Shown: positions 1-48,781 of the stretch, piece by piece | Position numbering within the stretch: the stretch's first letter is position 1 | Layout: every line of letters starts with the position of its first letter | Assembly (NCBI GenBank): GCA_000004985.1 | Contig: GG738850.1 | From: Naegleria gruberi | Lineage: Eukaryota | Strand: one strand, 5' to 3' | Length of the DNA: 64,000 bases | Notes under the pieces: model-generated | The model's input: only the letters and a program-made list of their open reading frames with translations | Told to the model about the DNA's origin: nothing | Databases searched by the model: none | Program-made: the position numbers and the translations under genes

Positions 1-2801
1 TCAGAGAATCAATAATACTATTAAATTCTCCATCAGCATGTTGTGAGGTAGAAATCTCAATTTCAATACTTTCAGGTGTCTTGTTAACATGATCGCATAG
101 CCTTTGAATTGGTTCATCGTTGATTTGAGAAGGAGAGAGAATGTCATTTGTGTTGAGGAATGGATCTGTCAAAATTGTTGCAGGATCTTCCTGCTCTGGT
201 GGTTTTACATTCTCTTCTTTTATGTCTTCCACAACATATCTCTGGAGTGGGCGTGGGCTACTCTTCTTAATTTGCTTGTCAAGGTCATCCTCATCGTCGA
301 ATAAACTGTTGGATCCTGATGCGGATGAGTGTGAAAATACAAACGTCTCAGGACTAATACTAATCTTCTTTTCAAATTCATTCTCTGAAAAGGATGTTTC
401 AAATAGCTTTTCATATTCTCTTCGTTTTTCGGGACTAGTTACTGATATTTCCTCAATATTATATTGTGGCACTATTGTATAGTTAACATGGGGAGATTCA
501 TAATATTCTGTACGAGGTATGTCCTCTAGCTTAGTTTTCTTTGTTTGTTGCTCTATTCCTTCTGTTCTATCCGGTGCTATTTCGGATGGATATTCATCCA
601 ATGTTGGAGGGTTTGAGGCATTTGTGGAAAGGTTGTGTTGGGGTGTAATACGAATGAGTATTTGTCCTGTTTTTTCTTGCCTAGAACTGTCATACAGGTT
701 ATACCAACCACAAATATCAGACGAGTAAGAAAGAGGAGAAACATCAATACATGCCTCGCCCACCAATGTAACTCTTCTATTTACAATATCATGAATTTGA
801 AGGGTTATTTCATAATTAAATTTGGAAATATCTTTTCCAATAGTAATGGTTGTGAAATTTTTGGATAGCAATTCTTGTTCCATTAATTTTTCAACTCTTC
901 CCATCAATATCGAAAACATTACTTGAAAAGGTTAGAGATCTCTATCAATTTGGTAACTTACATTTTCCTTCGAATTCAATATCATGAATTCTCTCGATTG
1001 TTATTTTCACATCCCCATTGAACTTAAAAGATTTTGTCATGTTTGATTCTTTTGTTGAGGACAATTTTGGGGACAAGGTAGTGTTTTGTTTCTTTTCCAT
1101 AGTGACTACATTATTTTGTTTCAAGTCACCAAGTGCTTCCTTCATTTCTCGAATATCCTTCCCAATCTGAGTTAATTGTTGCCTGTAAATTTTCTCTAAT
1201 TTTCCAAAGGCACAAGTGAGGGCTACAAACGAACTTGTATTCTTAGTCTCATTATCAGATAAATAATTTACAAGATTTTCACCCTTCTTGTGTTGAAGGT
1301 CTTTTTCCCTAGATTCCACCATAACCTTTTCTGGTGATGCTCGCTTTTTAGTTTTATCATTCAGTAGAGAGGCTAGCATTATGCTCTCCTCATATATGGA
1401 ATCCGTAGTCGTGTTATTATTGTTTTCCTTTGGTTGTTCTGATATTGAAGATCTATTGTGGGAAGCCTGTATTTGCTCCTCTTCAACCTTATTAACATAG
1501 GCCACAAGGATTGGATTCAAACCTTCCTTTTCAGCCTTTCTTTCCTCCTCGGTTAGTTTTCTATAGTACATGGTTGATGAGTCCAGTGAGTGAAAGATTG
1601 GTATTTTCATTAAGTTCAAAGCACTTGGTCTTTTTGCTGGATTGTATTCAAACATGCAAGCCAGTGTTTGTAATGCTATTCCAGAAATTTCAAAATAGGG
1701 ATTGGAGGTAAGGAACCCCTTGAGAGCTGCCAATTTGTTAATCTTGATATTCTTTTTAGCAAGAGCAGCAAATAGCCGATTTTCCCAAACATACTTTGGA
1801 GTTTCAGCTCTATTATCTGATGAACCATACCCCAGCACTGAAATAGTATTGGTCACTTGATCTTCTAACGTTTTGGCGCTAAATAATGGATATGGAAGAA
1901 CCATTTCAGCAAATATGCAGCCAGCAGCCCAAATATCAACTTCTAGAGAATTAACAAAATTATGTTTCAGCTCTTTGTAAACTTTCTTCTTGTGTTTCGT
2001 CATTTTGTAAATGTCAATATCGTTACAAAGCCTGAAAACAAACTCTGGGGGCGAGTACCAAATCTGATTTTCAAAGAATTCCTTCACCACTACCTTGTTG
2101 TTCTCAGTGAATTTGACAGTGTATGGATCGATATGACTTTCTCCAAGTGGTTCATCAATGTACTTTCTTAAAAACTCAAGCTTGTCAATAATAAACGGCC
2201 TCATTGAAACCTTTCTAGTCCTCTTATTAATTAGAATGTTGCATGGCGAAAGTGAAAAGTATGGCTCTCCTAGTGCATGCAGTATTCGACAACTCTCCAA
2301 ACAACAAGTCATTATTGAGAAAATTAGACTATTTTTCAGTGGTTGATGTTCCTTAGTATTCCTAGATCTGTTCTTGTACAGCAAGTATCGTAACGATACA
2401 ATATCATCCAATTGTTCCACTGTACAAAAGTATTTATCTGTGTATTTAGAATTCTTCTCAATTTGTTCAAAATAAAAACAATCCAATAAATTAACAATAT
2501 CCTTCTCTCGCAAAAATAATAAACAATCAATCCTCTCATGAATATCCTTGTATTTGGAGTAGAGTTTTTCATCTTCCGAAGTATATTTTTCATGATCATA
2601 TGAATAAAGATATTGTTTGGTAATCAAGTAATGCGGTCTCTTCCGCTTTCGTTCGTCTCTATGTTTCCTATATGAAACTTCATCGCTTAGTTTCAAACAT
2701 ATGAATTGATGATCACTCAAAGTTTGAATGACCTCATATTGGTTCATTTTTTTGAGTATGAAATTGTTTTTATTTGGGCGGGAATACTTCAAACCCGCCA
2801 T
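1..2801 (-). CDS. CMGC/CDK-like kinase-like protein (probable pseudokinase) fused to a C-terminal C2-like domain. Two exons, 2801..962 and 921..1; the 3' end runs off the window.
   Basis: ORF 945..2801 carries a CDK/MAPK C-lobe (WYSPPE, DIWAAGCIFAEM, YNPAKRPSA), but HRD and DFG are degenerate. Its TGA sits inside a 40-nt GTAAGT..CTCTAAC..TTTTCAAG intron. Splicing joins it in frame (phase 1) to an uninterrupted minus-strand frame from 921 to 1, which the ORF track omits because it has no stop in the window. The join reconstitutes a single C2-like domain across the junction. ATG at 2801..2799. Confidence 0.6.
922..961 (-). other. spliceosomal intron (40 nt) joining the kinase-like exon to the C2-domain exon
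   Basis: Minus-strand GTAAGTTACC...CTCTAAC...TTTTCAAG. The in-frame stop of ORF 945..2801 is intronic, and the frame is preserved across the junction. Confidence 0.55.
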
Positions 2802-3410
2802 TTCATCTACATTTCTGTTTGTTTGATGGCAGGAAATTAAACAGCTAAATAGCTTTGGAAATTATTGGTAACATAATATTTTGAATAGAAGCAGTGAGAT
2901 TTCTTAAATACTGTAACAGCCTTAATGACAATCTAGTCGACAAATCCCCGAAATAACAAATCAACTTCTTCCTCAAACAAGAAGTCATCTTCCTCATGAA
3001 AATAACAATACGGTTGAGCCAGGATAATAATTTAAAGCTTCCTCCTTTCGGACCAAGATTAATAATGTCAGGTGAACTCTTTGGCCAACTTTCCTTCATA
3101 GCATTGAGTCATATTTAATATTATTATTCTAGCTTGGCCGGTGATGATGAATAAAAGAATCCTTTTCACAATCGTCATCGCTATGCAGGTGATGGAAAAA
3201 CGTAAAAAAATATTTCCACCATCCTGTAACAACCAATATCAGAGGCTGCTTGTTTTTCATCAAGCGACAACAACATTATCGGTTTGCAATTCTCAGATTG
3301 CGTCATCTTGCCTCTTCTTTAACCCAACAAAATATATTAAATTTTTTTAGGTCTCTTTTCTAACCAAAGTTAGGAGATTCAATGGTTGGATTTTTTCAAG
3401 TCTTTTAAAA

Positions 3411-6331
3411 ATGTTTAATGACCATCATCAAATGGCATTCCGATTGGAAGATTCAGAAGGTTTGAATAGACAACAACCTCATCAACAGTTCATGTCCTCG
3501 TTCCAAGTTAATTCTCCAAGTTTTTCCTCTCCGACTCAAATTAGTCCGTCTACTAATTCTTTCCTTCATCCTCAAGAGGTTGTTAATATTCCATTATTTG
3601 ATGCCAATACTCAGGAAACTAATGGAACAAATCAACCAAATGTTGAGAAGAAGGTAAAGAAGAAGAAATCAATTCAATCCTTACCTCAACTTTCCACTAC
3701 CACTGAAAGTACAGAGGCTCAACTGTCTCCTATGGCATGTCAACATTGCAGGTAAGTAGTGGTTGACATAATATGATGACATTCAATTTCAACCTATTAT
3801 CATCAATATTCTCTAGGTCTTTGCATAAAAAGTGTGATAGAACTTTACCAAATTGTTTGAGATGTCTCCAAACAAATCACCTATGTTTTTACCCGGATAA
3901 AAAGAGGAAAAAATCGGAAAGTTTAGACAGTTTGGATTCACAACATAAATCACCAACAGGTACTCAACCACACCAAGAACCAAAGAAGAAAAAGAAGTCA
4001 AATGAACAACAACATCATAATAGCAACAACCAAATGAATAACAATCCAATGATTAATCAACTATTTGGTCAATTGGGTGGACATGTGAATAACCAAATGA
4101 ATAATCAAGCAAACAATCAGATGAATAATCAACAATCTCAAATGAATATTACAGCCGATAATTTTTCCCAAAACCTTCAACAATTAGCCCAAAATATGGG
4201 TCTAGGATTGGGTCACGACATGAATGAGGCAAACCCTATGAATCCTCTGTCCTTAGGTTTACTTTCCTCCAAAATATCTTCACTCAATACTTCCACTCAG
4301 TTGCAATTGCTCAACATGGCAGCTAATGCCTTGTCAGGCAATACCAACTCTCTTAATAACCTCATTTCAAATATACCAGCAGGAATATTGTCGGCATTCA
4401 CTGGTGGGGCAAGACAAACCCCAAATGTGGAATCTGTTACTCCTCTTGTAGCCGTTCAAAATTCTGCTGGTCATTTCCAACATTCTGTTAAACCAATTAC
4501 GGCATTTGTATTGGATATTTATTTCCATACTTATAGTTTTGGATTCCCGTTGATTCCAAAAGAGAGAATGTCAGCCCTATTGGATTTGGTGCTGTTAAAA
4601 CAACAACAGCAATTATCATCTACAGTTGAGATGCAACAACATTGCTCTATTCAAATCAAGACATTCTATGAAAGAGTTGCCAAGCAGTTCTGGTCTTCAG
4701 CTGTTGATATGGAGAAGGATCTTGCAGTATTTTTTGCAGTGTTAGCAGCAACACTTCAATGTTCTGGAAACTTTGTCTATCAACAGTACAAGAATTGTGC
4801 AAACCATTTGGATTTAATTTCATCTGCAGGAGCTGCAATTAATCTTCACCAAATTGGTTCACAATACGAATCTCCATTGGAAAATACTATGGGAGGTAGT
4901 TCTATAAATGGTACAGACTCACCACATGATGATTTATTCATTCAAGACCTTAAGAATAAGTGGTTCAACAATTCAAAGAATATCATTGGTAAATATTTCG
5001 ACGATTTGGACAGCATGTCAATTCCTATTGCTCTTACATTTTTGGTTTACTATCTTGTTGGTGAAGGTGAGCTTCAAAGAGCCAGAATGTACACGAATAT
5101 GGTTGAAAACTTGTGTCAAAAAGTATGGAGTTCAATGAATTGTTTTGGTATTGGCTCTAGAGGTTTTGTAAATGGCTCCAAACCAGTTGTGAGTACACTC
5201 TCCAAAATATCTGGTTCTGGAGGTGCTTCCAGTATCATGTACGGCTTACCTGCCCTTCTTGTTCACAGGTATTTAAGACCTATTGAAATCTTTTTGGCCG
5301 AATTTGAGGAACCAACAAATTCACTAAAAAGAAAGCTGCAAAACATTGGAAATAAGATTAGAATAGATTTGACATTTATTGAAGACTGGGAAAATATTAA
5401 GGATCATGAATTGGAAGAATTAGAAAGATTAATCAAATTCCTAAACAAGTATATTGATTTGCTATTCTCTACCATGATGAATAAGGAATCAATGTTATAC
5501 ATTACAAGCCATTTAACCTTCCATGATGTTGTTATGGATGTTTATAAGCGTGCACAAACAAAGAATGTAGATTCACTCCTCAGATTTGCTGCAGAGGTTA
5601 TTGAAATAACTAAAATCCCTCTATTCACCTTCCTTCCAACAGCCTTCATCAATACTATAATGAAGGCCGTGCAAGTTAGACTTGCCTATGGGAAGCCTTC
5701 AGAAAATCCAAATATCAATTTGAGAGATGACATGGCAGCCCTCAAACTTCTCTCAGCTAAATATCCAGTCATTACCAAACTCTTCGGTGATACTATAAGA
5801 GAAGTAGAAACAGTTCTCTATCTTCAATCCTTTTCTCATTCTAGTATTATGCGTCATATTTTACCAGAGCAACCTTACACTCAAACTACCACAAACAATA
5901 ACAGCAATTCCTCAGAGTTTGATTTTGAAGATAATAATTTTGATATTTTGAACTTTTTGAATGGTGAACCATCACACGGAATGTCTGGCGTGTCTGGAAT
6001 GAATTTTGATGATGAATTGATTGGAGAAATCTTTGGCTTTTCAAACTTGGACAATGAGAGTACAACTTCGAATACCAGTTGCGAATCCATTTTCATTGAT
6101 GGAGAAAAACTTGAAATTCCTTCATGTGTTAAATCAGGTTCTTTCCTACCAATTCTGATTAAAAATCTTAGTAAGCAAAAAGAAGTTTTGCTTCAAAATG
6201 ATCCAAACAAATCAGAGATAATCAAAATGTTGAGAACTCAACTCATTGATGAACTCACACAACATGTAGGAACTGATGAAAATACCAAGCTACTCATTCA
6301 ATTATTTACAAAGAGTTACGTACACAAGTAA
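3411..6331 (+). CDS. Zn(II)2Cys6 (Gal4-type) fungal transcription factor, two exons (3411..3751, 3817..6331)
   Basis: Spliced product reads MACQHCRSLHKKCDRTLPNCLRCLQTNHLC, matching C-x2-C-x6-C-x6-C-x2-C-x6-C with the conserved Pro before Cys4. Downstream is a long region with fungal-specific-TF-like middle homology and an N/Q-rich tract. A 65-nt intron (GTAAGT..TCTCTAG) links ORF 3411..3755 to ORF 3773..6331 in frame. Confidence 0.75.
3752..3816 (+). other. spliceosomal intron (65 nt) inside the Zn2Cys6 DNA-binding motif
   Basis: GTAAGTAG...TTGACAT..TCTCTAG. The stop of the upstream ORF lies in the intron. A split Arg codon (AG|G) immediately follows Cys2. Confidence 0.7.
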
Positions 6332-6870
6332 TACCTACCAATAAAAACTAGTAGATGAAGATAAACATATTAATTTTTATTTTACATAGCGGTAGGGTTG
6401 AACTCAAAGTTAATATTTTTAGAATATTCTCAATCAATTGTTAAAATATTCAAACACAGATGCAATGAATAATTGAATAAGATCCTCATTCTTCAAATTG
6501 CACAAAAGTGATTGAAAAAAAATGCAACAACTAAACGAAGAAGAACCTGCGGAGAATTTTAAAGATTTGATGGAGACTTCTTCCACTCCTCCATTAGACA
6601 GAGAAGTAACAACCAATGAAACAGTAATAGAATCTACAGGAGTAGGAGATGCAGGAGATGAAAAACCAATTGGAAATGCAAAAAGATGGTGGAGAAAGGC
6701 AGCAACGATTCCGATTTTAAAACATTTTGTCTTGTTTTTGCAAACATATGGTACCTTGTTTTTATTTAATCATGCGTATCGGTCGTTGTTTTTTATGGTA
6801 GGTGATTAGAATTGCAATTGAATTATAATTTGTTCAATATTTTCAATGATTTTGTGAATTTTGTGTCAAA

Positions 6871-48707: not shown

Positions 48708-48781
48708 TACCGACAATGGGGCTCGAACCCACGACCCCAGGATTAGAAGTCCTGTGCTCTATCCAACTGAGCTATGACGGC
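48708..48781 (-). tRNA. tRNA-Arg (TCT)
   Basis: Minus strand GCCGTCA-TA-GCTCAGTTGGATAGAGC-A-CAGGA-CTTCTAA-TCCTG-GGGTC-GTGGGTTCGAGCCCCAT-TGTCGGT-A. A and B boxes are present. There is one U5:U68 mismatch. A T5 run lies downstream. Confidence 0.8.

Follow-up and report, generated by a model that had tools for sequence, protein, structure and literature searches.

A CMGC-type pseudokinase apparently fused to a C2 domain across a 40-nucleotide intron in Naegleria gruberi

A stretch of 64,000 nucleotides (nt) of the Naegleria gruberi nuclear genome (assembly GCA_000004985.1, contig GG738850.1; hereafter the window) carries on its minus strand a single gene, NAEGRDRAFT_46329, which runs from position 2801 to beyond base 1, contains one 40-nt phase-1 intron and encodes a protein of ~934 amino acids (aa), or 916 aa when counted from the methionine at which its orthologues begin. 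Comparison with homologous sequences indicates that the spliced gene is a real fusion of a kinase-like domain and a C2 domain. The protein would consist of a pseudokinase, a linker, a Ca2+-independent C2 domain and a tail, and we consider it probable that it works as a non-catalytic adaptor on a surface, most likely a membrane. Existing annotation already treats the locus as a single spliced gene and uses this donor site; what is new here is the correct acceptor and the assignment of the C2 domain. We know of no previous description of a CMGC-derived pseudokinase carrying a C-terminal C2 domain.

The list of open reading frames (ORFs) contains a minus-strand ORF at 2801..945 that encodes 618 aa and ends in TGA. 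An earlier note on this DNA had placed that TGA inside an intron of the form GTAAGT..CTCTAAC..CAAG and had claimed that removing the intron opens a long frame to the window edge. Both statements are borne out by the window sequence: the intron, GTAAGTTACCAAATTGATAGAGATCTCTAACCTTTTCAAG, corresponds to 961..922 on the minus strand, and its excision splits a leucine codon and joins the 618-aa ORF to a downstream frame of 307 codons without a stop. An open frame of that length has a probability of about 8e-11 at the base composition of the window, whose G+C content is 34%. The combination GTAAGT-N(5-35)-TCTAAC occurs once on both strands of the 64-kb window, precisely at this intron, with ~0.24 occurrences expected by chance. 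According to the C-terminus of the deposited protein, the coding sequence extends ~14 codons and a stop past window base 1. At the other end an ATG lies at 2801, and in the orthologue alignment the orthologues begin at the methionine encoded at 2747.

The splice junction is conserved among relatives of N. gruberi. GTAAGT introns lie at the identical codon and in the identical phase in N. lovaniensis (69 nt), in a Naegleria assembled from Logan data (L001, ~66 nt) and in Willaertia magna (42 nt); the intron sequences themselves are unrelated, and two of the three also contain TCTAAC. The peptide that follows the junction, LMFSILMGRVEKLMEQELLSKNFTTITIGKD, is conserved among the Naegleria and Willaertia orthologues, and the first 31 residues of exon 2 are kept in their alignment. 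Two more distant homologues carry no intron at all: in Acrasis kona (L005, JAOPGA020001643.1) a single ORF of 572 aa at 2518..4236 spans both domains, as does a single ORF of 1465 aa at 2001..6398 in homologue L004, and each combines a degenerate kinase domain with a C-terminal GWY...GQ(I/M)x(V/I) sandwich. Because both parts share one uninterrupted ORF in these two homologues, the kinase-C2 fusion that the earlier note had read from the letters appears to be real and not an artefact of splice prediction.

The same evidence bears on the simplest alternative, in which no splicing takes place, the kinase-like gene stops at the 945 TGA, and the open frame beyond it is to be explained as a gene of its own or as a relic. 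The 618-aa ORF is indeed complete by itself, and an ORF-based gene call on the Logan-assembly Naegleria cut the orthologue in the same manner (P0003). An ATG follows the intron immediately in N. gruberi, but the corresponding residue is Tyr or Phe in the orthologues, and the conserved position and phase of the intron, together with the single ORFs of Acrasis and L004, stand against an unspliced gene. Moreover, in the structural model strand beta1 of the C2 domain belongs to exon 1 and strands beta2-beta8 to exon 2. We therefore regard the absence of splicing as extremely improbable. The exact sequence of the unspliced 618-aa product has no database record.

The spliced product has its best database match in a 904-aa 'predicted protein' of N. 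gruberi (XP_002681466.1, EFC48722.1, UniProt D2V364, NAEGRDRAFT_46329), with 97% identity over the full length. This deposited model shares the locus, donor site and reading frames with ours, and differs in its acceptor, which lies 90 nt further downstream and yields an intron of 130 nt (961..832). The deposited protein accordingly reads ...EFEGK-YISKFNY, with 30 net residues missing, and is annotated with Pkinase only, leaving the C2 domain unannotated. The proximal acceptor (922) appears to give a better gene model than the distal one (832), since the skipped residues are conserved. One may still ask whether the deposited intron is correct, so that the protein lacks residues 614-644, or whether both acceptors are used to give alternative isoforms: the deposited splice is likewise in frame, and the distal site ends in AG. 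However, N. lovaniensis, Naegleria sp. and Willaertia all preserve the 31 residues it skips, and in the model these residues form C2 strands beta2-beta4, so that their deletion would break the C2 fold. Upstream of the proximal acceptor lie a branch-type TCTAAC and a T-rich tract, neither of which precedes the distal acceptor (TTGGAAAAG), and the orthologue introns measure 42-69 nt. These points make the distal acceptor very improbable, either alone or as a second site. With the proximal acceptor, it follows that the public N. gruberi model and records derived from it, such as UniProt D2V364, lack three strands of a C2 domain that is, here, invisible to standard annotation.

Deposited models of two homologues also depart from the ORFs we observed. 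The N. lovaniensis model (PYSW02000014.1) ends at 5937 in a frame without the C-terminal motif of the family, and a different frame immediately beyond (~5937..6010) encodes that motif, EEFNTIISSLQRLQTELKTFAVL*, for which reason the 3' part of the deposited model is probably in error, either in frame or in splicing. The Acrasis model KAL0490123.1 (411 aa) begins at an internal methionine; the full 572-aa ORF includes the N-lobe of the pseudokinase.

The N-terminal domain is predicted to adopt the bilobal fold of eukaryotic protein kinases. The AlphaFold2 model of window residues 19-420, built from a 37-sequence alignment, has a mean predicted local distance difference test (pLDDT) of 88.4 and a predicted template modelling score (pTM) of 0.91. 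Foldseek returned 1881 PDB matches to it at E<=0.001, and the best 50 listed are all protein kinases, the closest being CDK6, CDK5, CDK2, MAPKs and GSK3. A profile of four orthologues searched against PDB chains likewise found GSK3, CDK and MAPK as best matches, with GSK3 ranked first. The Pfam Pkinase profile covers the C-lobe only, with a score of 32.8 bits (cut-off 31.7). In addition to these CMGC relatives, the C-lobe carries the signatures DIWAAGCIFAEM and LEDQVTNTISVLG and retains a CMGC-typical DIWxxGCIFAEM segment in helix F, EDQ...LG and an xPPE/APE segment. The domain thus shares its fold and C-lobe motifs with CDK2/5/6, MAPK and GSK3, and differs from these canonical CMGC kinases in a 42-aa activation-segment stretch, mostly insertion, and in a further insertion after the APE position. 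The earlier note had called it CDK-like. Given the model and the alignments, the domain is best described as a CMGC-type pseudokinase, and 'CDK-like' holds for similarity of fold only: its alphaC helix, KDIHERIDCLLFLRE, is not of the PSTAIRE type, and GSK3 ranks above CDK by sequence, with CDK first by structure, so a specific CDK assignment was rejected in favour of the group name, and the domain is placed with none of CDK, MAPK and GSK3 in particular.

Alignment of eight family members with canonical kinases, and with the human CDK2 sequence, located the catalytic elements and agrees with the earlier claim that the CMGC C-lobe is kept while the Gly-rich loop, the HRD Asp and DFG are lost. 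The Gly-loop region reads TLSDHQFICL in N. gruberi, and none of the eight members has a glycine there. The HRD Asp corresponds to Ser183 in N. gruberi (YFS throughout Naegleria) and to E, N, H, P or T in other members; the position of the alphaC Glu is occupied by an invariant Arg (Arg90); and the APE position reads (P/S/A)PE across the family. What relatives such as CDK2/5/6, MAPK and GSK3 have, and this domain lacks, is the Gly loop, the alphaC Glu, the HRD Asp, the DFG Asp and a PSTAIRE-type helix. The model represents the activation-segment stretch as a beta-hairpin (strands E203-213/E219-226). Together, the confident kinase fold and this pattern of substitutions uphold the reading of the domain as a pseudokinase.

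Some catalytic residues may nevertheless have persisted. A lysine, K62 (LITK), stands at or beside the beta3 Lys position in seven of the eight members, and the catalytic-loop Asn (Asn188 in N. gruberi) is also retained in seven of eight. Coupled with the high confidence of the intact fold, these residues could fit a domain that is atypically active or a regulated nucleotide binder, in the way that WNK, CASK and haspin make up for canonical residues they lack. Yet in both alignments the canonical beta3 Lys falls one residue ahead of K62, Acrasis lacks this Lys, and four elements (the Gly-loop glycines, the alphaC Glu, the HRD Asp and the DFG Asp) have been lost jointly across the family. We hold such activity or regulated binding to be very improbable, and treat the domain as a pseudokinase below.

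Downstream of the linker, the C2-like motif that the earlier note had described as spanning the junction is present on both sides of it, as GDVKITIERIHDIEFEGK and ...WYNLYD...GQILIRI. The domain was modelled with AlphaFold2 on the corresponding segment of N. lovaniensis (~55% identical), the N. gruberi exon-2 translation being one row of the alignment. The model predicts an eight-stranded antiparallel beta-sandwich of the C2 type (pLDDT 83.1, pTM 0.76), in which the intron falls between beta1 and beta2 as had been proposed; the structural check suggested in the earlier note thus gave a confident kinase fold for the first domain and a C2 sandwich, in the orthologue, for the second. Sequence searches point in the same direction. 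Weak Pfam C2 matches occur in five of seven family members (best E=0.012), and one member matches NT-C2 at 1.5e-4. A family profile run against 1.84 billion representative proteins found a Diphylleia rotans protein with many canonical C2 repeats (E=3.4e-10), aligned over six stretches that span the Lxvxv(Y/F)D...lGe..idls.l....gWY.L....tGqi.vri half of the domain. The weak PDB sequence matches are all C2 domains, from Piccolo, PKC alpha/beta/gamma, CEP120 and RGS3.

The predicted C2 domain does not look like a calcium sensor. Naegleria and Willaertia retain the first Asp alone of the D-x-D...D loop, and Acrasis and family member P0009 none of its aspartates; no loop of the SDPY type was found in the C2 region in the family alignments. 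Ca2+-dependent membrane binding was rejected because the canonical set of ligand aspartates, a cluster of about five in C2 domains of the synaptotagmin and conventional PKC type, is missing. Compared with C2 domains that act independently of Ca2+ (ferlin C2A, PKC-epsilon C2, CEP120 C2A/C2C, NT-C2), identity is only 9-18%, and against the C2-clan families of Pfam the domain stays below every threshold, save for the one weak NT-C2 match.

Between the two domains, and after the second, lie shorter conserved elements (Table 1). The linker bears the conserved DSIYEESIMLASLLN and ENLxNYLSDNE. The spacing of its acidic-hydrophobic motif, of pattern (D/E)E(S/A)(I/L)x(I/L)(A/V/I)S(L/F/M)(L/I)N, resembles that of a ubiquitin-interacting motif (hydrophobic-x-x-Ala-x-x-x-Ser), with Asn replacing Ser. 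An assignment as such a motif (E-E-S-I-x-L-A-S-L-L-N) was rejected: Pfam gave no match to it at E<=10, and the likeness is one of pattern. For the conserved stretch that precedes the C2 domain we infer a helix or coiled coil. All three Naegleria species and an environmental fragment (P0010) share the C-terminal sequence IISSLQRLQTELKxFxVL, and Willaertia has a close variant near its C-terminus.

Table 1 Features of the pseudokinase-C2 gene and other annotated features in the window. Positions are those of the window.
Feature	Position	Strand	Remarks
Exon 1 of NAEGRDRAFT_46329	962..2801	-	Pseudokinase, linker, conserved putative helix, C2 strand beta1; from ORF list, orthologue alignment and 97% identity to the deposited protein
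Spliceosomal intron, 40 nt, phase 1	922..961	-	GTAAGT...TCTAAC...CAAG; in-frame TGA at 947..945 inside; position and phase conserved in orthologues
Exon 2	1..921	-	C2 strands beta2-beta8, low-complexity tail, start of conserved C-terminal motif
CMGC-type pseudokinase domain (predicted), aa 19 to ~405	1587..2747	-	AlphaFold2 model, Foldseek, Pfam, PDB profile matches
Degenerate Gly-rich loop	2694..2729	-	IQTLSDHQFICL instead of GxGxxG; alignments
Degenerate catalytic loop	2229..2264	-	PYFSLSPCNILI; HRD to YFS; alignments
DFG to RPF	2187..2204	-	Asp to Pro202; Pro invariant in family; alignments
Activation-segment stretch, 42 aa	2061..2186	-	Mostly insertion with respect to canonical kinases; DPYT(V/F)K motif conserved; alignment, AlphaFold2
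Acidic-hydrophobic linker motif	1356..1403	-	DSIYEESIMLASLLND; invariant orthologue columns; also in Acrasis and P0009
Conserved stretch	1116..1235	-	SSFVALTCAFGKLEKIYRQQLTQIGKDIREMKEALGDLKQ; pattern F.KLEKIYR..L..IG.DI.EMK.ALG.L; orthologue conservation
C2 domain (predicted), aa 596-706	644..1016	-	Intron between beta1 and beta2
30 codons read as intron in XP_002681466	832..921	-	Encode C2 strands beta2-beta4; orthologue comparison, strand map of model
Start of conserved C-terminal motif	2..28	-	EFNSIIDSL / RRLQTELKSFSVLQ; at gene 3' end in three orthologues and P0010
tRNA Leu-TAA	21719..21801	-	ARAGORN
tRNA Arg-TCT	48708..48781	-	ARAGORN
tRNA Ala-TGC	56769..56842	-	ARAGORN

The family appears to be small and restricted in range. 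Nine proteins of the representative library were found at E<=1e-10, the remaining matches being ordinary kinases reached through the C-lobe, and on these searches the gene is single-copy in N. gruberi. The named members come from N. gruberi, N. lovaniensis, Willaertia magna and Acrasis kona, all of them Heterolobosea, and the others are metagenome or Logan sequences. As far as the searched sequences indicate, the pseudokinase-C2 family is confined to Heterolobosea (Naegleria, Willaertia and Acrasis) and a few environmental sequences. A weak match in the representative search, P0012 (742 aa), represents another CMGC architecture, likewise degenerate as it seems, with two tandem MAPK-like domains in which HRD has become HRC and DFG has become DFK or DFR.

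Domain combinations peculiar to one lineage are frequent in protist kinomes, and kinase and C2 domains are known to occur in one chain in the PKC/PKN proteins; in PKC the C2 domain precedes an active AGC kinase and has a regulatory effect on it. In the protein described here a dead CMGC-type domain comes first and the C2 domain follows ~190 residues further towards the C-terminus, and the relation is limited to membership of the same two superfamilies. It does not belong to the protein kinase C family, as its kinase domain is CMGC-like and inactive, its C2 domain is C-terminal and it has no C1 domain. A closer parallel in organization is offered by scaffolding pseudokinases with appended modules, such as PAN3 (pseudokinase, coiled coil and C-terminal knob), ULK4, KSR and STRAD, in which, as here, an inactive kinase fold serves as a binding module joined to interaction domains. 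To our knowledge none of these is derived from CMGC kinases and none has a C2 domain; no homology to them was detected in the profile searches, where matches outside the family were ordinary kinases. The locus tag and accessions of the gene were not found in the literature, the gene is not listed in the supplementary tables of three Naegleria papers, and no description of the fusion was found in the literature on pseudokinases, C2 domains and Naegleria or on pseudokinase architectures.

With this architecture, the protein would phosphorylate nothing and would act instead as an adaptor. Its dead kinase domain, chiefly through the conserved activation-segment hairpin and the C-lobe, would bind a partner protein. 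The C2 domain would bring the resulting complex to a surface without Ca2+, most likely a membrane, and the linker and C-terminal motifs would attract further partners or drive self-association. Candidate parts for the recruitment of partners are the activation-segment hairpin and the motifs DSIYEESIMLASLLN and IISSLQRLQTELK.

Several observations weigh against this proposal. Nucleotide binding by the kinase domain is possible, since K62 and the catalytic-loop Asn are so widely kept. The C2 model is that of the N. lovaniensis orthologue, to which N. gruberi contributed as an alignment row, and the Pfam C2 profile (PF00168) remains below threshold in N. gruberi (13.6 bits against a cut-off of 22, E=0.082), so that of the two domains for which the earlier note had suggested a Pfam search, Pkinase was recovered and C2 was not. 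The evidence for the use of the splice sites is comparative throughout. Finally, the C2 domain is acidic in Naegleria, with an isoelectric point of 5.3-5.5 (~8.7, mildly basic, in other members), and binding to anionic lipids is therefore not favoured. An alternative, within an unchanged architecture, is a C2 domain that docks on a protein or on the cytoskeleton and not on a membrane, with a possible role at the microtubules of mitosis or of flagellate differentiation. The C2 domains of CEP120, CFAP70 and RPGRIP1 at centrioles and axonemes are precedents for docking of this kind; we think it rather unlikely here, and retain the membrane as the favoured surface. Only tentatively, and with no greater confidence, can one go further and suggest a Heterolobosea-specific adaptor, a dead CMGC docking module tethered by its C2 domain to a membrane or a microtubule structure, that may have kept the kinds of partner its active ancestors bound (of cyclin, substrate or MAPK-docking type) and that controls a process peculiar to the lineage, for instance the switch from amoeba to flagellate or closed mitosis.

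If the proposed organization is true, a C2-tethered CMGC pseudokinase would be the first of its kind to be described, adding a case of the reuse of a dead kinase as a scaffold in a lineage far from animals and fungi. The finding touches no long-standing open question. Conservation of the family extends throughout Naegleria and takes in a close relative of N. lovaniensis; for this reason the family may matter for the pathogen N. fowleri.

The gene adjacent to this one, transcribed divergently at 3411..6331 on the plus strand, likewise hides a domain behind a short intron (~3753..3816). Removal of this 64-nt GTAAGT...TCTCTAG intron joins the ORF at 3411..3755 to the ORF at 3773..6331 and gives ...MACQHCRSLHKKCDRTLPNCLRCLQTNHLCFY, a junction at which a complete fungal-type Zn(2)-Cys(6) cluster is formed, with a Pfam Zn_clus score of 32.6 bits (cut-off 21).

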